In this document: positions 5,737 through 21,903 of the stretch, piece after piece
Position numbering within the stretch: the first letter of the stretch is position 1
Layout: each line of letters begins with the position of its first letter
NCBI GenBank assembly: GCA_001787035.1
Contig: MFUY01000002.1
Coordinates: 7,355-47,954 of the forward strand
DNA from: Candidatus Nomurabacteria bacterium RIFCSPLOWO2_01_FULL_41_12
Lineage (GTDB): Bacteria > Patescibacteriota > Minisyncoccia > Phycocordibacterales > UBA9973
Reading direction: 5' to 3'
DNA length: 40,600 nucleotides
Made by a program: the position numbers and the translations under genes
Notes under the pieces: model-generated
What the model was told of the DNA's origin: nothing
The model's database searches: none
What the model saw: only the letters and a program-made list of their open reading frames with translations

Positions 5737-6462
5737 ATGTTAAGATACTCATATATGTCAAACATTAAACAATATTTTACGCAGAAAAATGTTCTCTTTA
5801 TTGTTATTTTCGCAGTTTTGGGGTTTATCGCTCTGCAAATTCCAGTGGCCCAATTGGAAGGGTCTAAAGTGAAGTTTATGGTCTATGACGCTTTCGCTCC
5901 TGTGGCCGGCGCTTTTATCGGTAGCTTGCCTGGCGTAGTGGCGGTCTTTTTAATGCAATTTGTAAATTTCTTGGTGCACGGAGCAGTTGTGGAAGATGCC
6001 GGAACAATTATTCGTTTTTTGCCGATGCTTTTCGCGGCATTATACTTCGCTCGGAAAGGAAAATCTAATCTAGTCGTTCCAGTACTTGCGATTATCGCTT
6101 TTATTGCTCATCCTATCGGCCAAACGGTTTGGTATTTTGCACTTTTCTGGACCATTCCAATTATTGCCTATTTTTTCCGTGACAGGTTTCTTTTGGCGCG
6201 GGCGCTTGGCGCCACCTTTACCGCCCACGCGGTCGGCGGCGCTTTATGGATCTGGGTTTTCAACCTGCCGGCGCCGGTTTGGGTCTCGCTTATACCGGTT
6301 GTGGCTCTAGAGCGCGGATTTTTTGCTCTTGGAATTGTTATTTCTTTTGTTCTTGTCAACAATCTTTTAGCTTTTCTCGAAAAGAAATATATCTTAAATC
6401 TCGGTTTTACTATTAACCAGGGATATCTCTTGGGCGCATTACGCCATGAATCGAAAGTCTAA
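5737..6462 (+). CDS. multi-pass membrane protein; possible vitamin/folate-type transporter component (context only)
   Basis: 241-aa ORF (alternative ATG at 5755) with about 6 hydrophobic segments. Its stop overlaps the next gene. Any function is inferred only from the adjacent folate genes. Confidence 0.5.
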   Translation: MLRYSYMSNIKQYFTQKNVLFIVIFAVLGFIALQIPVAQLEGSKVKFMVYDAFAPVAGAFIGSLPGVVAVFLMQFVNFLVHGAVVEDAGTIIRFLPMLFAALYFARKGKSNLVVPVLAIIAFIAHPIGQTVWYFALFWTIPIIAYFFRDRFLLARALGATFTAHAVGGALWIWVFNLPAPVWVSLIPVVALERGFFALGIVISFVLVNNLLAFLEKKYILNLGFTINQGYLLGALRHESKV

Positions 6463-6985
6463 GCCGCATAAAGTTATTTACACCGCTTATGTTGCAACTA
6501 GTATTGATGGACGCATAGCAGAGAGTCATCAGTCCGGCATAGACTGGACAAGCAAGGAAGACTGGAATTTTTTTCAGAAATCTCTTAATAAAATGGATGC
6601 CGTCATTGTGGGGCATAATACTTATAAAGTTTCCAAAGATCGCCTCAAACGGAGAAACACCATAGTTTTGACTTCAAAAATCAATAAGTTGAAAACACAA
6701 GACAAAATTGTTTTTTTTAATCCAAAGAACTCCAGCCTAGAAAAATTTCTTAGTAGTAAAGGATATAAAAATATAGCAGTGCTCGGTGGCGGTAAAGTGT
6801 ATGATTTTTGCCTTTCCAATAAAATGCTGGATGAGCTTTTTGTCACGATTGAACCGTATGTTTTCACAAATGGCGTGCCGATGTTCTCCGGGATTAGATT
6901 CAGAAAATATAAATTTTCCTTAGTTACAGTTAAAAGACTTAATAAAACAGGAACCCTTCTCTTAAAATATAAAAATGAAAATTAA
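6446..6985 (+). CDS. RibD C-terminal domain / dihydrofolate-reductase-like reductase family protein
   Basis: 179 aa. VATSIDGRIA, DAVIVGHNTY, VLGGGKVY, DELFVTIEPYVFTNG. Confidence 0.7.
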   Translation: MNRKSKPHKVIYTAYVATSIDGRIAESHQSGIDWTSKEDWNFFQKSLNKMDAVIVGHNTYKVSKDRLKRRNTIVLTSKINKLKTQDKIVFFNPKNSSLEKFLSSKGYKNIAVLGGGKVYDFCLSNKMLDELFVTIEPYVFTNGVPMFSGIRFRKYKFSLVTVKRLNKTGTLLLKYKNEN

Positions 6986-7736
6986 AACTATAAAAACCAG
7001 AATATTTCGCGAAAACGAAAACCTAATGGAGTTTATTTTAAAGTATCTCAAAAAAATTCCCAAAAAAAATCTTGAGCAATCTATCCTGGTTATAACCTCC
7101 AAGATAGTGGCTCTCTCCGAAGGGAGAACTAAAGAAATTGATAAATCAATTTCTCACGACAAAATGCGGGAAAAGATTATTAAAGCTGAAAGCGAATATA
7201 TGCTGCGGACTAAATACACCTGGCTGACCATCAAAGACGGGATGGTCATGGCTTCAGCCGGCATTGATGAATCCAATGCGGACAACAAGATAGTTTTATT
7301 ACCAAAAGATTCTTTCCAGGCCGCCCATTTAATTCGCAAGAAGTTAGTTAAAGAATATAAAGTAAAAAACTTAGGTATTCTAATTACGGACAGCAGGCTA
7401 CTGCCTCTGCGCGCAGGCATCGTCGGAGCCGCTGTCGGTTATGCTGGGTTTAAAGGTGTGCGAGATTATCGCGGAACTCCGGATATCTTCAGGAGAATTT
7501 TAAAATTATCCCGGACTGATGTGGCTGACGGCTTGGCTACCGCAGCCGTACTTTGCATGGGAGAAGGCAAAGAGCGGCAACCACTCGCCTTGATTACTAA
7601 CGCTCCGGTTGAATTCGTGGAAAAAGTCAACAAAAAAGAGCTCTACATCGACCCGCGCGAAGATTTGTATCAGCCTCTTTTTGCCAGGATAAAAAAAATA
7701 AAAAATATAAAATCAAAGAATTATTACAGGTTTTAA
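6975..7736 (+). CDS. CofE/FbiB-like gamma-glutamyl ligase (putative folate-metabolism gamma-glutamate ligase)
   Basis: 253 aa. ITSKIVALSEGR, ASAGIDESNA, ILITDSRLLPLRAGIVGAAVGYAGF. Confidence 0.7.
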   Translation: MKIKTIKTRIFRENENLMEFILKYLKKIPKKNLEQSILVITSKIVALSEGRTKEIDKSISHDKMREKIIKAESEYMLRTKYTWLTIKDGMVMASAGIDESNADNKIVLLPKDSFQAAHLIRKKLVKEYKVKNLGILITDSRLLPLRAGIVGAAVGYAGFKGVRDYRGTPDIFRRILKLSRTDVADGLATAAVLCMGEGKERQPLALITNAPVEFVEKVNKKELYIDPREDLYQPLFARIKKIKNIKSKNYYRF

Positions 7737-7765: not shown

Positions 7766-8095
7766 ATGGTTGATTTAAAAGAATTACAAAAGGAAGTGAT
7801 GAGGAATAAGCTGGAGAAGGGGTTTAACACAAAAAATCTTGCGCTGGATTTTTGTCGCGCACACGAAGAACTTTCTGAAGCTTTTTCTAAACACAACAGG
7901 AATCAGCCCGGAGTGGCGGAAGAATTTGCTGATGTAATGATATTTATCCTTGGTATGTGTGAGACAATGGACTTTGACCTGGAAAAAGAATTAAACAGAA
8001 AAATTGAAATTAATAAAAAAAGAAAATACAGAAAAGAAAAATCCCCAGAAGGTGAAGATGTATTTATTCGCATAAAAACTCCCGAGGACCCTTAG
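7766..8095 (+). CDS. MazG-like all-alpha nucleoside triphosphate pyrophosphohydrolase
   Basis: 109 aa. AHEELSEAF ... AEEFADVMIFILGMCE metal-binding E-x-x-E/E-x-x-D pattern. Confidence 0.7.
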   Translation: MVDLKELQKEVMRNKLEKGFNTKNLALDFCRAHEELSEAFSKHNRNQPGVAEEFADVMIFILGMCETMDFDLEKELNRKIEINKKRKYRKEKSPEGEDVFIRIKTPEDP

Positions 8096-8583
8096 ATTTT
8101 TTCGTAGATTGAAAAGGTATAGTTAAAAGGATTCCTTTCGTCTTTTTGGCGCTCTTCGTGGGAGATTTCGTTCCAAACTACCGGTATAATTTCCGGGAAA
8201 AAGGCGTCAGCATCTTTTTCTTCCGCTTCTGTGTGGGTTATATAAAGTCTGTCGGCAATAGACATAGTTTGCTTATATAATTCTCCTCCTCCGATTATAA
8301 AAATTTCCTCGTCAGTATTTTTAAATAATTCTAATGCCTCATTTATAGAATGGGTAATTTCCACTCCGTCTTTCTTATAATTTAAATCTCTAGTAATTAT
8401 TATATTTCTCCTGTTGGGCAATGGCCTCCCCAGAGACTCAAAAGTCTTGCGTCCCATGATGACCGCATGTCCGGATGTAGTTTCCCTGAAATGCTTCATG
8501 TCTTCAGGCATATGCCACAGGAGGGTATTGTTTTTGCCTAGTTCGTTATTTTTCCCGATAGCTGCGATAAGTGAAATGGTCAT
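8092..8583 (-). CDS. folA: dihydrofolate reductase
   Basis: 163 aa. ISLIAAIGKNNELGKNNTLLWHMPEDMKHFRETTSGHAVIMGRKTFESLGRPLPNRRNIIITR and IIGGGELY. The ATG overlaps the TGA of the upstream ThyA-like gene (ATGA). Confidence 0.9.
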   Translation of the reverse strand: MTISLIAAIGKNNELGKNNTLLWHMPEDMKHFRETTSGHAVIMGRKTFESLGRPLPNRRNIIITRDLNYKKDGVEITHSINEALELFKNTDEEIFIIGGGELYKQTMSIADRLYITHTEAEEKDADAFFPEIIPVVWNEISHEERQKDERNPFNYTFSIYEKI

Positions 8584-9413
8584 TTTATGATATTTAAGCC
8601 TTCAATCGGCTCTCCGGGCTTGTAATAAGGAGCGAATGCTTCATAAATCTCTTTTACCAGATTCTCATCCTTTTTTTTCGCCCGGTCAAAAATATCTGGG
8701 GGCATTACCGGGAAAATGTTTGGATGCGTGTTCACTCTTTTAATTAATTCTTTTGCTCCTTCATAATGCGTATCGTAAATATGCGCATTGGAAATAGTAT
8801 GGGTATAAACTCCAGGTTTCACTCCCAGTTTTTGCGCAACTATATACATGAGGAGGGTAAAGCCAAAAGTATCAAAAGGGCATCCTAGCATCATGTCATT
8901 TGACCTTATAATATTGTGCAAATGAAGCCTCCTACCGATGATATTTATGGTAAAGGCAAAAGGGCAAGGCACGTTCTTTTTCTCCGTTCCGCCAAACCCG
9001 TCATCGCCCGGGTCCCAGGTGACTATCACTCCCTGGCGAGAAGTCGGGTCTTTTGTAAGTAATTCTATCAGCTTGCCTAGCTGGTCTCTTTTGAAATGAT
9101 GTTTCCAGCGATATCCGTAGGCTGCGGTAATCGTACCGTCCGGCTCAATAAATTCATCCCACATTTTTGTATATTTTCGCAAAAACTCAGTATCTTTCTC
9201 GCCAGTTATAAACCAAACTTGCTCGGCAATGGGCGACTTTATAGGATTTTTCCTTAGCGTCAAAATAGGAAAACCATCTTTTTCTATATCAATTTGGAAA
9301 GTAATCCCGGGCAAGGCTTTTGTTTTATGGCCCGTTCTCTCGTTAAGCTCTTCTATTCCTTCAGACATTATTTTCTTAATAATGTTTTGATAGATTGTAT
9401 CAAAAGTGGTCAT
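8580..9413 (-). CDS. thymidylate synthase (ThyA) family enzyme with Asp at the Asn177 specificity position
   Basis: 277 aa counted from the ATG at 9413. The track ORF runs on to 9638, but the ThyA alignment begins at MTTFDTIYQ. Motifs: NERTGHKT, MWDEF, catalytic Cys in NVPCPFAF (codon 8964-8966), IRSNDMMLGCPFD (Asp codon 8871-8873), NAHIY. Confidence 0.85.
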   Translation of the reverse strand: MTTFDTIYQNIIKKIMSEGIEELNERTGHKTKALPGITFQIDIEKDGFPILTLRKNPIKSPIAEQVWFITGEKDTEFLRKYTKMWDEFIEPDGTITAAYGYRWKHHFKRDQLGKLIELLTKDPTSRQGVIVTWDPGDDGFGGTEKKNVPCPFAFTINIIGRRLHLHNIIRSNDMMLGCPFDTFGFTLLMYIVAQKLGVKPGVYTHTISNAHIYDTHYEGAKELIKRVNTHPNIFPVMPPDIFDRAKKKDENLVKEIYEAFAPYYKPGEPIEGLNIIK

Positions 9414-9438
9414 ATAGTAGAGTATACAATATAAACTT

Positions 9439-9927
9439 ATGGAAACAAGAAATATCAAATATCCGTATTTGCCGGAAAGCCGAACTATTTTATATGTTCC
9501 CGAGGAAAATAAATATATGTTTTCCGCCAAAGAAGTTGCACTCAGAGAATCTACTGATAAAAAGATTTCAACCGGAGTTGTAATTGTAAATGAGCAGGGC
9601 GAGATTTTGGTTAAGGCTGCAAACCAGTCCGCGCTCAAAAATCAATATCTTCTAGCTACCCATAAAAACTGGTGTATCAGAAAACTTTTTAAAATTCCTT
9701 CGGGGCAAAAATATTGGCTATGTCCCGGATGCGCTTCGCACAGGAATCATGGGGAATATAGGGCGATAAAGATGCTGGAAAAAAAATTTCCGAATAAAGT
9801 TGGCTCAAGTTTAGATTTATATTTGTGGGGGCATTGGTGGTGCTGCAAGCCTTGTTGGGATAAAATGATAGAGGTTGGAATCAGGAGTGTATATCTTCTG
9901 CAGGGGGCAGATAAACTTTTTAAATAA
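9439..9927 (+). CDS. cytidine/deoxycytidylate deaminase-fold zinc enzyme (dCMP deaminase-like)
   Basis: 162 aa. NHGEYRAI (H-x-E zinc/catalytic motif) and CKPCWDKM (PCxxC). Divergent from the ThyA-like gene across a 25-bp spacer. Confidence 0.65.
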   Translation: METRNIKYPYLPESRTILYVPEENKYMFSAKEVALRESTDKKISTGVVIVNEQGEILVKAANQSALKNQYLLATHKNWCIRKLFKIPSGQKYWLCPGCASHRNHGEYRAIKMLEKKFPNKVGSSLDLYLWGHWWCCKPCWDKMIEVGIRSVYLLQGADKLFK

Positions 9928-9928
9928 T

Positions 9929-10360
9929 ATGAAAAAGAAACTTTACATCGGTTGCGCTTTGACAAATATCCCAGTTGATAAAAGGAAAATTCTTCTAGAG
10001 ATGATTGTTAAAATAAAAAAGGAATTAAGTAATCATTTTGAAATTCTAGAGTTTTTAGGGGTTGATGATTTGGGGACCGATCGTCCTTTTTCTCCACGTG
10101 AAATTTATAATTTTGATATAAAAGAGTGTTTAATGAAAACGGATTATTTTTTAGCAATTTGTGATTATCCTGCACTTGGTCTTGGTTATGAGATAGCTAC
10201 AGCTGTGGAGAAAAGAGGAATTCCGGTTTTGGCTCTGGCTCATAAGGATTCTAAGGTTTCTAGATGTATTGTTGGTATTGATCATCCCAATTTTCATTTC
10301 ATGTATTATGATTCGGTGGAAGATATTATTGAAAAAACCTTTAAAACATTGACAAATTAA
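9929..10360 (+). CDS. nucleoside 2-deoxyribosyltransferase/DNPH1-like fold protein
   Basis: 143 aa from the ATG at 9929 (the track start 9875 overlaps the upstream gene). LYIGCAL... and PALGLGYEIATAVEKRGIPVLAL resemble the NDT-family core. Weak assignment. Confidence 0.4.
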   Translation: MKKKLYIGCALTNIPVDKRKILLEMIVKIKKELSNHFEILEFLGVDDLGTDRPFSPREIYNFDIKECLMKTDYFLAICDYPALGLGYEIATAVEKRGIPVLALAHKDSKVSRCIVGIDHPNFHFMYYDSVEDIIEKTFKTLTN

Positions 10361-18005: not shown

Positions 18006-19097
18006 ATGCTTCAGACCCCATTTTACAACCCGGAGAAATCTTATGAGGAAAATTTTCAAAAAGGCCCTTTTGGTGCCTTCGCGCAAGGCTTCGGCAACCC
18101 AAAGGGGGCTGATTCGGAAGTCATAAAAGATGAAGGCGAGCCCAAATATGATTTTCTTGGCTTCAAAGTAAACTCGCCTTTCGGTATTGCTGCCGGACCG
18201 CTTATAAATGGGAATTTTGTGCAGGCGGCACTCGATAAAGGTTTTGATATTGTCACTTATAAAACTGTCCGCACTAGAGAGTATCCATGTCATCCATGGC
18301 CGAATGTTTTGTCAGTGGAAGTGCCTGGAGACTTAACTTTAGAGAAGGCTGAAGAGGGAGTTGTGGCGAACGAAAATTATTCTGAACCGCTTTCCATTAC
18401 CAATTCTTTCGGCGTGCCCTCCTTTCCGCCTGAATTCTGGCAGGAAGATATAAAAAAAGTGGTAAAAAATTTACGCAAGGGGCAGATTCTCGTCGGCGCT
18501 TTCCAGAGAACAAAAAAAGAAATACCGGATGTGGAAGAATATATAAAAGATTTTGCCAGAGCAGCCAGACTAATGAAGGAAACTGGGGTGAATGTGATGG
18601 AAGTAAATTTCTCTTGTCCCAATGAAGGCACTGCAGAGCTTCTTTGTTATGACGTAGAGCGCAGCGCCGAAGTTTTGAAAGCGATCAAAGATGAAATTAA
18701 AAATATTCCTTTGATTGTAAAAATTTCTTATTTTAAAGACGAAGAATTGCTTCGCCATTTTGTAAAAAAGGTTGGTTCTTTAGTGCAAGGTGTTTCTGCT
18801 ATTAATACTATTTTTTCAAAAATAGTGGACGAGAAGGGAGGCGAAGCGCTTCCCGGACGGACGCATAGCGGAGTTTGCGGTCATGCCATAAAATGGGCAG
18901 GACTGGATATGGTGAAAAGATTAAAAAAGTTGCGTGAAGAGTTAGGATATTCATATACTATCATCGGCGTCGGGGGAGTGATGAATGCGAATGATTTTTT
19001 GGAGTACCGAAATGCCGGTGCAGACGTCGTGATGTCGGCGACCGGCGCGATGTGGAACCCGTATCTTGCAAGAGACATAAAAGAAAGGTTAAGATAA
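18006..19097 (+). CDS. pyrD: dihydroorotate dehydrogenase family protein
   Basis: 363 aa. FGIAAGPL, NFSCPN, GVGGV. Followed by pyrE and pyrF. Confidence 0.75.
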   Translation: MLQTPFYNPEKSYEENFQKGPFGAFAQGFGNPKGADSEVIKDEGEPKYDFLGFKVNSPFGIAAGPLINGNFVQAALDKGFDIVTYKTVRTREYPCHPWPNVLSVEVPGDLTLEKAEEGVVANENYSEPLSITNSFGVPSFPPEFWQEDIKKVVKNLRKGQILVGAFQRTKKEIPDVEEYIKDFARAARLMKETGVNVMEVNFSCPNEGTAELLCYDVERSAEVLKAIKDEIKNIPLIVKISYFKDEELLRHFVKKVGSLVQGVSAINTIFSKIVDEKGGEALPGRTHSGVCGHAIKWAGLDMVKRLKKLREELGYSYTIIGVGGVMNANDFLEYRNAGADVVMSATGAMWNPYLARDIKERLR

Positions 19098-19103
19098 AAT
19101 TAT

Positions 19104-19751
19104 ATGAATGAATCGAACCAAGAAGTTGTGGATATACTTAAGAAAACAAATGCAGTAGTTACCAATAGTCATTTCGTTTATGTTTCTGGGAAGCATGCTC
19201 CGGAATATGTTAACAAGGATTATGTTTATCCGCACACCGCACAAATTTCCCGGATTGCGGAAATAATTGCGGAAAAATACAAAGACCTACCAGTTGATGT
19301 CATAGTTGGACCATCTATCGGTGGTATTATACTTTCTCAATGGACGGCGCATCATCTATCGCTTTTGAAAGGTAAAGAAATTTTAAGTGTTTTTACAGAA
19401 AAGCAACCCAATAAAGATCAAATTTTTATGAGATATTACGGGCAATACGTAAAAGGCAGAAATGTTTTAGTTGTTGAAGATGTAGTAACTACAGGGGGCT
19501 CTGTGAAAAAAGTTATAAATAGTGTTCTGAAAGAAGGCGGTAAAGTTTTAGCCGCCTGCGCGATAGTAAACAAAGACCCCAAAAATATAAATCCGGATTT
19601 TATCGGTGTGCCTTTTGACTATTTGGCAATTATTGGTATGGATGTTTGGGATGAAAAAGATTGTCCGTTATGTAAAGAGGGTGTGCCAATAAATCTTCAG
19701 TTGGGATATGGTAACCAATTTTTGGAGCAACATAAAGATTATCCAAGATGA
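19104..19751 (+). CDS. pyrE: orotate phosphoribosyltransferase
   Basis: 215 aa. PRPP-binding loop VLVVEDVVTTGGS. The TGA stop overlaps the pyrF ATG. Confidence 0.8.
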   Translation: MNESNQEVVDILKKTNAVVTNSHFVYVSGKHAPEYVNKDYVYPHTAQISRIAEIIAEKYKDLPVDVIVGPSIGGIILSQWTAHHLSLLKGKEILSVFTEKQPNKDQIFMRYYGQYVKGRNVLVVEDVVTTGGSVKKVINSVLKEGGKVLAACAIVNKDPKNINPDFIGVPFDYLAIIGMDVWDEKDCPLCKEGVPINLQLGYGNQFLEQHKDYPR

Positions 19752-20563
19752 TAATTGATAAATACAACAAAAGAGCAAAAAAAATAAATTCGCTTCTTTG
19801 TGTAGGTTTGGATACTGACTTTTCTAAAATTCCCAAGCGTTTTTTGAGAAAAAAATTTCCTCAATTTGAATTTAATAAATGGATTATAGAAGAGACGCAC
19901 GAATTTGTCGTGGCTTATAAGCCAAATAGCGCATTTTATGAAGCGCGGGGTGATAAGGGAATGAAAGAATTAAAAATGACAATGGATTATTTGATTAAAA
20001 ATTATCCGGATGTTTTTACAATATTAGATGCCAAACGCGCAGACATTGGTAATACGAATAATGGCTATGTGTCGGCTATTTTTGACTGGCTTAATTTTGA
20101 TGCTGTAACTCTTCATCCATATTTAGGGAAAGAAGCATTAAAGCCGTTTCTAGACAGGAAAAATAAAGGTTGCATTATTCTTTGCCGGACTTCAAACAAA
20201 GGAGCCGAAGAGTTTCAGGATTTAGAGTTTTCGCAAGGACGGTCCTTGCGAAAACTTTGGCAGATTGTGGCGGAGAGAGTGAGTAAAAATTGGGATAAAA
20301 ATAAAAATTGCATGCTTGTCGTCGGTGCGACTTATCCAAAAGAAATGAAAAAAATCCGCGCGCTGGTCGGCGACATGACTTTTCTTGTGCCCGGTATCGG
20401 TGCGCAGGGTGGAGATTTGAAAGCTGTAATAAAAGCCGGCTTAAACAAAAAAGGCCTCGGTCTCATTATTAATTCTTCTCGGGGAATTATTTTTGCCAAA
20501 AATCCCAAAGAAGGGGCACAAAAACTTAGGGATGAAATTAGGACATATAAGAATATTTCCTAA
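19748..20563 (+). CDS. pyrF: orotidine 5'-phosphate decarboxylase (type 2)
   Basis: 271 aa. LCVGLDTD, ILDAKRADIGNT, LVPGIGAQGG. Confidence 0.85.
   Translation: MIIDKYNKRAKKINSLLCVGLDTDFSKIPKRFLRKKFPQFEFNKWIIEETHEFVVAYKPNSAFYEARGDKGMKELKMTMDYLIKNYPDVFTILDAKRADIGNTNNGYVSAIFDWLNFDAVTLHPYLGKEALKPFLDRKNKGCIILCRTSNKGAEEFQDLEFSQGRSLRKLWQIVAERVSKNWDKNKNCMLVVGATYPKEMKKIRALVGDMTFLVPGIGAQGGDLKAVIKAGLNKKGLGLIINSSRGIIFAKNPKEGAQKLRDEIRTYKNIS
20226..20256. repeat. Family D palindrome, copy D1, inside the pyrF coding sequence
   Basis: Perfect 31-nt palindrome AGTTTTCGCAAGGAC-G-GTCCTTGCGAAAACT, encoding FSQGRSLRKL. The core AAGGAC-S-GTCCTT recurs at 21908, 26121/26145, 27333 and 39978/40004. Confidence 0.7.
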
Positions 20564-20709: not shown

Positions 20710-21903
20710 ATGGCAGAAGAATTTAAAAGAGACAGGCCGCACATAAATGTCGGCACCATTGGTCACGTTGACCATGGTAAGACTACCTTAACAGCTTCCA
20801 TCCTGCATGTTTTGAATATGGCCGGAAAGCAGGTTAGGCTTCGAGGTGTTGATCAGATCGACAATGCTCCGGAAGAAAAAGCTCGAGGAATTACTATTAA
20901 TATTTCTCACAACGAGTATTCAACCGATGCCCGCCACTATGCGCACATCGATGCTCCAGGACACGCGGACTATATTAAAAACATGATTACCGGCGCAGCT
21001 CAGATGGACGGCGCTATCCTTGTGGTTGCGGCTACTGACGGCGCGATGCCTCAAACTCGCGAACACGTTTTGCTTGCTAAGCAAGTCGGCGTGCCTAAAA
21101 TGATTGTTTTCTTAAACAAGTGCGACATGGTTGACGATAAAGACATGATTGACCTGGTGGAAGAAGAAATTCGCGAGCTCCTAACCAAACAAGGTTTTGA
21201 CGGCGCTGGCGCTCCGGTTATTCGCGGTTCAGCCCTTAAAGCTCTTGAATCAAAGTCCGTTGACGATGAATGGGCGAAAAAAATTCTTGAACTCGTCAAT
21301 GCTCTAGATACCTATATTCCAATCCCAGAGAGAGACATTTCCAAGCCTTTTCTTATGCCGGTTGAAGACATCTTCTCTATTGAAGGACGAGGAACAGTTG
21401 TGACCGGAAAAATTGAAAGAGGGGTAGTGAAAGTCGGCGAAGATGTGGAAATTGTCTGAATTAAACCTACCCAAAAATCAACGGTTACCGGTATTGAAAT
21501 GTTCAATAAAAATCTACAAGAAGGTATGGCTGGAGACAACGCCGGTATTCTGCTTCGGGGCTTAAAGAAAGAAGACATTACCCGTGGGCAAGTTCTTTGC
21601 AAACCGGGCACAACTACTCCACACGACAACTTTACCGCTGAAATATATGTTTTAAAAAAAGAAGAAGGCGGACGTCACACTCCTTTCTTTAAAGGCTATA
21701 AGCCCCAGTTTTATATCCGAACGACGGATGTCACAGGTGATGTAGCTCTTGCTGAAGGGACAGAAATGGTTATGCCTGGAGATACGGTAAAGATTACAGT
21801 TAAATTAGTCACTCCGGTTGCATTAGAGGAAGCGCAGAGATTTGCTATTCGTGAAGGAGGCAAGACTGTCGGCGCAGGGGTGGTTACAAAGATTCTTGGT
21901 TAA
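20710..21903 (+). CDS. tuf: translation elongation factor Tu, one reading frame interrupted by a single in-frame TGA (21457-21459)
   Basis: Track ORFs 20710..21459 and 21499..21903 are in the same frame. Read through, the junction gives GEDVEIV-[TGA][15 protein letters not shown], which matches the conserved EF-Tu [33 protein letters not shown] and NKCD are present. Confidence 0.85.

Follow-up and report, generated by a model that had tools for sequence, protein, structure and literature searches.

The 40,600-nucleotide stretch of the Candidatus Nomurabacteria bacterium RIFCSPLOWO2_01_FULL_41_12 genome analysed here (contig MFUY01000002.1; hereafter the window) contains on its reverse strand a gene of the thymidylate synthase (TS) family, at 8580..9413, whose product is predicted to be a C5-methyltransferase of deoxycytidine monophosphate (dCMP) of the type found in phage Xp12. 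The open reading frame (ORF) starts with the ATG at 9413, codes for 277 amino acids (9413..8583) and ends with a TGA stop at 8582-8580. The protein matches the Pfam family PF00303 (Thymidylat_synt) with an E value of 1.3e-54, its AlphaFold2 model has the TS fold (predicted local distance difference test, pLDDT, 83; template modelling, TM, scores of 0.7-0.8 against solved TSs) and database sources label it thymidylate synthase. The TS stop and the start of folA, which codes for a dihydrofolate reductase (DHFR) of 163 amino acids (8092..8583, reverse strand; PF00186, E=6.6e-62, and NCBIfam DHFR models), share an ATGA at 8580..8583 (folA ATG at 8583-8581), an overlap already reported in the original prediction for this DNA. 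At the other end, 25 bp from the TS start, begins a divergently oriented gene of the dCMP deaminase family (9439..9927, forward strand, 162 amino acids; PF00383, E=1.5e-9). Beyond folA and convergent with it, their 3' ends overlapping by 4 nt (8092-8095), there is a gene for a MazG-like all-alpha nucleoside triphosphate pyrophosphatase of 109 amino acids (7766..8095, forward strand), identified by a Pfam MazG-like match of 25.5 bits, just below the cut-off, and by PHROG 3301 (2e-14). This protein also matches PDB 4qgp (9e-5) and, weakly, DCTPP1.

Alignment by phmmer with five solved TSs places the query segment RSNDMMLGCPFD on the motif RSADxFLGVPFN, with Asp181 (codon 8871..8873, reverse strand like the other codons given here) on the column of Escherichia coli Asn177, the pyrimidine-specificity residue that reads the O4/N3-H edge of uracil in ThyA and is absent from the query. 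The same correspondence was obtained in MAFFT alignments with E. coli ThyA. The ThyA reference is identical to PDB 1AOB, and the reference for the dCMP hydroxymethylase (dCH) of phage T4 was checked against PDB 1B49. Other ThyA features are also replaced: His147 by Pro151 (8961..8963), Leu143 by Asn147 (8973..8975), Trp83 by Phe88 (9150..9152) and Arg127, the second Arg of the DSRR motif, by Gln127 (9033..9035; TSRQ here). Asn147 lies three residues before the catalytic Cys (Cys-3), where canonical TSs have Leu and hydroxymethylases Asp or Glu. The canonical catalytic and phosphate/ribose set of ThyA (Arg21, Glu58, Tyr94, Arg126, Cys146, Arg166, Ser167, Asp169, His207 and Tyr209) is complete in the query, as Arg26, Glu64, Tyr99, Arg126, Cys150 (8964..8966), Arg170, Ser171, Asp173, His211 and Tyr213. 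The original prediction had proposed the Asp at the Asn177 site, the retention of the catalytic Cys and of the conserved Arg, Ser and Asp, and the changes of His147 to Pro and of the second DSRR Arg to Gln; all of these are borne out, and multiple alignment does not shift the Asp off its column. It had also held that the substitutions N177D and N229D redirect TS to dCMP, which is what the literature describes (PMC8670742).

The Asp is a fixed property of the family to which this protein belongs. It is found within a PFD motif in 117 of 120 homologues with at least 71% identity (the remaining three failed to match the search motif) and is invariant across an alignment of 38 close homologues. 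We have also scanned one genome per GTDB species, which gave 80 loci of the Candidate Phyla Radiation (CPR, or Patescibacteria), with flanks of about 14 kb each, titled as Nomurabacteria, Paceibacterota, Taylor-, Harrison-, Lipton-, Uhr-, Falkow-, Kuenen- and Kerfeldbacteria and covering several classes. All 80 have Asp177, Phe83 and Pro147 (Leu in two of them), with His or Gln at position 127. Its presence in 117 of the homologues and in all 80 of these CPR loci means that the Asp is neither a chance substitution nor a sequencing error. In many CPR bacteria it is this gene that stands as 'thyA' in the core genome. Many of the metagenome-assembled records recovered (L012, L014, L027, L063, L065 and others) are titled 'uncultured Candidatus Saccharibacteria' or 'Gammaproteobacteria'; since their TSs show 57-83% identity to that of Nomurabacteria and stand in the same gene context, these titles appear to be automatic mislabels of genomes of the Paceibacteria type. 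Among them is OZ246400.1, a complete chromosome of 931 kb.

A way to see which residues go together with the Asp is to compare the members of the wider family that have it with those that have the canonical Asn. Family representatives were drawn from a search of 1.84 billion representative proteins; among the best 150 matches about 125 were Asp-type and 18 Asn-type, the others being fragments without the column. When the alignment columns were ranked by their divergence between 130 Asp-type and 18 Asn-type representatives, position 177 came first, followed by Leu143 (Asn in the Asp-type), His147 (Pro) and Trp83 (Phe), all four of them active-site positions. The Asn-type representatives keep Leu143 in 18 cases, Trp83 in 17 and His147 in 16. 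At the same four columns (83, 143, 147 and 177) the query and the TS of phage Xp12 are identical, with Phe, Asn, Pro and Asp. Positions 177 and 147 were also the top two separating cytosine-modified from unmodified phage contigs in the MetaGPA study (PMC8670742). In a rough neighbour-joining (NJ) tree, distance-based, rooted on T4, without support values and used for grouping only, the Asn-type sequences group with E. coli and the CPR group is nested among the Asp-type sequences.

The DNA of phage Xp12 contains 5-methylcytosine (5mC) in place of all cytosine, and its TS is the nearest relative of the query among characterised enzymes. By BLASTP the two share 38% identity over 252 residues (192 bits), while the query shares 27% (106 bits) with E. 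coli ThyA and 20% (33 bits) with T4 dCH. The top phage matches of the query are Xp12 and its relatives, together with Rhodobacter and Achromobacter phages. Besides the four columns mentioned, the Xp12 and Nomurabacteria proteins have in common the blocks KNVPCP and AYGYRW..HF.RDQL and a long C-terminal tail. Their surroundings are also alike: the Xp12 gene row reads HAD hydrolase, TS, dCMP deaminase and DHFR, so that both TSs adjoin a dCMP-deaminase-family gene and a DHFR gene, and Xp12 relatives have a MazG-like pyrophosphatase beside the TS. The differences are in gene order and strand, in the serine hydroxymethyltransferase (SHMT) and folate-glutamylation genes that the CPR cluster adds and in the genetic setting, a virus that replaces all its cytosine in one case and the core chromosome of a cellular lineage in the other.

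The functional precedent comes from a preprint reporting that, of seven Asp-type TSs from metaviromes, five made 5-methyl-deoxycytidine (5-methyl-dC) in E. coli, as did the Xp12 TS (bioRxiv 10.1101/2024.12.05.627091). In the cytosine-modified contigs of that study 70% of the deaminase genes lie within 3 kb of a TS, and the TS-adjacent deaminases prefer 5mC and probably supply thymidine triphosphate (dTTP) from 5-methyl-deoxycytidine triphosphate (5-methyl-dCTP). These metaviromic modules (bioRxiv 10.1101/2024.12.05.627091; PMC8670742) resemble the CPR cluster in having an Asp-type TS no more than 3 kb from a PF00383 deaminase and a PRA-PH/MazG-like gene, and would follow the same logic of obtaining thymidine nucleotides by deaminating 5-methyl-dC nucleotides. 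In the window the TS, the PF00383 deaminase and the MazG-like gene together span 7766-9927, within the roughly 3 kb of the viral 5mC module. The CPR gene belongs to a known phage-type module, the conserved core-genome cluster having the same content as the phage 5mC module; neither this nor the role of the gene as core-genome 'thyA' in a large part of the CPR was part of the original prediction. The modules of TS and 5mC-selective deaminases (mSCD) have, however, been described for viruses only, whereas the CPR one is cellular, and mSCD-B5 acts on triphosphates and single-stranded DNA. The CPR deaminase forms a separate, CPR-restricted clade.

The nearest relatives of the CPR TSs outside the CPR are on two phage contigs (loci L090, 8001-9292, and L091, 8001-9899), with a dCMP-deaminase-family gene 3' of the TS; in L090 the two are immediate neighbours, whereas in L091 another gene stands between them. 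Terminase, HNH, helicase, DNA polymerase A and Acb2/Tad1-like genes are carried on these contigs. Fusions of a deaminase or of a MazG domain with TS occur among the family representatives: P0135 is a dCMP-deaminase-TS fusion (locus L001, 8001-9302) on a phage-like contig, adjoining a DCD/dUTPase gene, and P0181 is a PRA-PH/MazG-TS fusion. An HNH-TS fusion (P0166) and an Asp-type TS with an N-terminal extension of 190 amino acids (P0122; locus L002, 8001-9401) were also seen.

Along the CPR chromosomes the association of these genes is well preserved. DHFR is present in the flank at 74 of the 80 loci and directly downstream of the TS at 53, where the spacing is an overlap of 4 nt (ATGA) in nine, an overlap of 1 nt in five and a gap of at most 12 nt in most of the others. 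The deaminase was found at 74 loci, MazG at 41 and an adjacent SHMT at 25. In the window the cluster lies between nusG-rplK and rpsL-rpsG-fusA-pyrDEF-tuf-rpsJ, i.e. in the core chromosome, and in relatives it is likewise found between nusG-rplK and rpsL-rpsG-fusA-tuf.

The deaminase belongs to a CPR-restricted clade of PF00383 in which the zinc motifs (H104-x-E106 and C136-x2-C139) are invariant and an extra CPGC is conserved. Its sequence has no match in PDB. The best structural matches of its AlphaFold2 model (pLDDT 85) are human dCMP deaminase and the dCMP/dCTP deaminase of PBCV-1, but these matches are modest, with TM scores of about 0.5. It is related to the deaminase of the phage contig L090 (30% identity, E=6.5e-10; profile E=1.4e-13), and in the NJ tree the TS of that contig belongs to the group that is sister to the CPR clade, so that TS and deaminase look co-inherited as a pair. 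In humans an all-alpha MazG-type pyrophosphatase (DCTPP1) and the dCMP deaminase (DCTD) can turn 5-methyl-dCTP into thymidylate (dTMP). The window proteins recall both, the MazG-like protein by its DCTPP1 match and the deaminase model by having DCTD as best structural match, but these similarities are weak and the human pair serves pool sanitation, with no dCMP methylase feeding into it.

The explanation that we favour, with a probability of roughly 0.6, is that the TS gene encodes a folate-dependent dCMP C5-methyltransferase of the Xp12 type that would release dihydrofolate, and that the resulting 5-methyl-dC nucleotides would then be deaminated to thymidylate. From the features described above we infer the substrate and the product, the roles of the deaminase and of the MazG-like protein and the physiological purpose, as follows. 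The MazG-like pyrophosphatase probably turns deoxycytidine triphosphate (dCTP), or 5-methyl-dCTP, into the monophosphate. Cys150 would attack C6 of dCMP, with Asp181 reading and protonating the N3/4-NH2 edge of cytosine, at the place where Asn177 of ThyA reads uracil, and the methylene group of 5,10-methylenetetrahydrofolate would go to C5. The retained C-terminal tail would close the site, so that hydride transfer from the folate yields 5-methyl-dCMP and dihydrofolate. The latter would be recycled by the translationally coupled FolA, and SHMT, adjacent in many relatives, would recharge the folate. Finally, the divergent deaminase would turn the 5-methyl-dC nucleotides into thymidine nucleotides, in a pathway that methylates first and deaminates second and in which deoxyuridine monophosphate (dUMP) does not appear.

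Several observations weigh against this explanation. The catalytic loop (residues 141-151) is modelled with a pLDDT below 50, which makes any inference at the level of the pocket impossible. The protein scores 120.6 against the cut-off of 108.35 of the NCBIfam equivalog TIGR03284 'thymidylate synthase', although it remains far below the cut-offs of the seven other NCBIfam thymidylate synthase models listed (five PRK01827, TIGR03283 and PRK13821); since the TIGR03284 cut-off is cleared, the Asp-type clade will keep the name thymidylate synthase in annotation pipelines. The key functional precedent is a preprint and deals with phage and metaviromic enzymes. The Xp12 TS keeps the Arg127 that is Gln127 in the query, and the window deaminase has no detectable similarity to that of Xp12 by direct comparison. 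The specificity of the deaminase, including a preference for 5mC, is not readable from its sequence or model. A cell must make dTMP, and the search for a second thyA or thyX covered the window and the 80 flanks. Lastly, a context of deaminase, DHFR and SHMT fits equally well the normal pathway from dCMP to dUMP and dTMP. With the context compatible with both, only the active-site signature discriminates between them.

That normal pathway is the core of the most serious alternative, namely that the gene encodes an ordinary TS that methylates dUMP in spite of the Asp, with the deaminase supplying the dUMP from dCMP, FolA recycling the dihydrofolate and the odd residues being the product of drift in the lineage or of compensated changes. 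Apart from positions 177, 147, 143 and 83 the fold and the catalytic residues are canonical, the deaminase/DHFR/SHMT context is that of the classical thymidylate cycle, the TIGR03284 cut-off is passed and the CPR literature treats the gene as thyA. Furthermore, tblastn with E. coli ThyA and Thermotoga maritima ThyX as probes detected no further ThyA and no ThyX across the window and the 80 flanks of about 14 kb. We nevertheless consider this alternative rather unlikely. The exchange of Asn for Asp is by itself reported to switch TS towards dCMP, and here the Asp is invariant and accompanied by three co-varying active-site changes that are common to a reported dCMP methylase. The Asn-type representatives nearly all retain the canonical residues at those three positions, and the nearest relatives are pairs of an Asp-type TS and a deaminase in phages.

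A second alternative accepts the methylation of dCMP but gives it another purpose: the enzyme would mainly place 5mC in the DNA of the cell itself by way of the nucleotide pool, replacing cytosine partly or wholly as in Xp12. The resemblance of the module to the phage kit for 5mC replacement (Asp-type TS, DHFR and a MazG-like protein as candidate dCTPase) speaks for it. However, a deaminase beside the TS in 74 of the 80 loci would drain the 5-methyl-dC nucleotides to thymidine nucleotides, and the clustering with SHMT and DHFR fits a bulk demand for thymidylate. We know of no cellular organism that introduces 5mC into its DNA in this way, and regard this purpose as improbable.

Still less probable is that the protein is a hydroxymethylase like gp42 of phage T4, which would yield 5-hydroxymethyl-dCMP and tetrahydrofolate. 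What suggests it is that T4 gp42 acts on dCMP and has Asp at the specificity position in an RSND...D context like that of the query (the checked T4 sequence reads RSND...FRND, in agreement with the original prediction), and that in many members of the clade the second residue before the catalytic Tyr (Tyr-2) is Ser. The paper on the ternary complex of T4 dCH proposes as hydroxymethylase signature Asp or Glu at Cys-3, which activates the substrate water (the D145N mutant is inactive), Ser or Thr at Tyr-2 and the absence of a C-terminal tail. None of the three is found in the query. At Cys-3 the clade alignment has an invariant Asn (Asn147 in the query), i.e. the residue that inactivates the T4 enzyme, and Asp occurs there in just two of the Asp-type representatives, both placed near the T4 branch. 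The residue at Tyr-2 is Ala97; Ser or Thr at this position does not discriminate by itself, because many clade members and Xp12 have Ser, and the Xp12 TS, with the same S-x-Y and KNVPC motifs, is nonetheless reported to make 5-methyl-dC. The tail is kept, with 64 residues after the equivalent of Tyr209, to be compared with 61 in Xp12, 55 in E. coli and 28 in T4 dCH. The T4 enzyme further differs in having Thr at 147 and Val at 83, their overall identity is the 20% given above, and an enzyme that releases tetrahydrofolate needs no tight coupling to DHFR. The original prediction had argued for methylation over hydroxymethylation from the folA overlap, and this argument gains from the conserved DHFR linkage, the retained tail and the lack of Asp or Glu at Cys-3.

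Hardly credible, finally, is that the gene is phage or prophage cargo, or a cytidine monophosphate (CMP)-directed enzyme of secondary metabolism like MilA/BcmA, outside core metabolism: phage contigs do carry the nearest relatives outside the CPR, and the DNPH1/NDT-like ORF after the deaminase faintly recalls the MilA-MilB pair, but the flanks of ribosomal-protein genes, nusG, fusA and tuf, in the window and in relatives, and the conservation of the cluster across 80 CPR species in several classes contradict a prophage or island origin, and the query lacks the MilA/BcmA determinants of CMP specificity (Ala replacing Ser167 and Lys replacing Arg126).

Its Ser171 and Arg126 indicate a deoxyribo substrate. 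Both the hydroxymethylase and the CMP-specific readings were thus rejected on published signatures, and with their failure the predicted reaction is the reductive methylation of dCMP. Every computational test that we have run points in the direction of the original prediction, a dCMP-directed enzyme, and to methylation in preference to hydroxymethylation. Compared with ThyA of E. coli and Lactobacillus casei, the query shares the fold, the nucleophile, the phosphate-binding Arg166 and Ser167, Glu58, Tyr94, the tail and the partnership with DHFR; what separates them are the five replacements listed above (at Asn177, His147, Leu143, Trp83 and Arg127) and an identity of only 27% to the E. coli enzyme.

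Only 2 nt after the deaminase stop starts an ORF of 143 amino acids (9929..10360, forward strand) without a Pfam match but weakly similar to Rcl/DNPH1 (PDB 2khz, E=0.011, the catalytic GYE motif being conserved); it is present at 14 of the 80 CPR loci, usually just beyond the deaminase. Given its similarity to N-glycosidases of deoxynucleoside monophosphates, it may clear aberrant monophosphates from the pool. On the opposite side there is a CofE-like 'putative folate metabolism gamma-glutamate ligase' (6975..7736, forward strand; PF01996, 1.6e-36; TIGR04132, 1.7e-57, below the cut-off), found at 11 of the loci, and before it a second DHFR-like protein, of the RibD_C family (6446..6985, forward strand; PF01872, 2.5e-14; PF00186, 2.4e-10). 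The RibD_C gene overlaps the start of the CofE-like gene (the two span 6446-7736), and with folA and the TS they form a small island of folate genes, although the genome is believed to have no folate synthesis. As the TS and deaminase starts are on opposite strands and only 25 bp apart (9414-9438), their promoters must sit within the neighbouring coding sequence. A scan of the cluster for consensus promoters and terminators gave counts at the level of chance, and Rfam and tRNA scans of the window gave only a tRNA-His at 209-280.

Farther along, between fusA and tuf, are pyrD-, pyrE- and pyrF-like genes (dihydroorotate dehydrogenase, DHO_dh, phosphoribosyltransferase and orotidine monophosphate decarboxylase; 18006-20563, forward strand), so that genes for the late part of the de novo pyrimidine pathway are embedded in the ribosomal-protein region. 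The EF-Tu gene (20710-21903, forward strand) is split by one in-frame TGA at 21457-21459, which we take to fall on a conserved Gly of E. coli EF-Tu (EIV*IK versus EIVGIK). It could be an assembly error changing GGA to TGA, a polymorphism or a local recoding; the other genes of the window are intact, which makes a genome-wide use of UGA for Gly unlikely. This TGA gave rise to the idea that the TS stop might be read through as well, but that was ruled out, since the homologues stop at the same residue with TAA (50), TAG (13) or TGA (16).

That Asp-type TSs can act as dCMP methylases, and can be paired with 5mC-selective deaminases, is already known from phages. In the literature searched, no paper describes a cellular lineage whose chromosomal 'thyA' is of the Asp type, and there was nothing relevant on thyX in the CPR or on dCMP methylases outside phages. 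With phage precedents known and no cellular report found, what is new here is a known type of enzyme and module in cellular core metabolism. Cells are universally taken to make their thymidylate from dUMP, with ThyA or ThyX. The phage signature of dCMP methylation and the conserved core-genome cluster together suggest that a large bacterial radiation may make its thymidylate via 5-methyl-dCMP. A tentative extension, to which we give a little less than an even chance, is that much of the CPR (at least the Paceibacteria and ABY1 lineages) is without a dUMP-dependent TS and obtains all its thymidylate from dCTP or dCMP via 5-methyl-dCMP to dTMP or dTTP, the last step by a dedicated deaminase, which would be a third cellular route, with an ancestry common to the phage kit for 5mC-DNA.

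If the CPR 'thyA' does methylate dCMP, thousands of genomes are mis-annotated, and the metabolic reconstructions of nucleotide and folate exchange between CPR bacteria and their hosts would need revision. The clade would be a source of new dCMP methylases, and possibly of 5mC-selective deaminases, of biotechnological interest. Cells would also have a source of 5-methyl-dC nucleotides, a matter of relevance to DNA modification and to the evasion of restriction, and such a uracil-free route could leak 5mC into DNA without any DNA methyltransferase. A major bacterial radiation would then be methylating first and deaminating afterwards, a route that has until now been proposed for 5mC phages alone, and this would provide an evolutionary link between the DNA-modification kits of phages and the core metabolism of cells.

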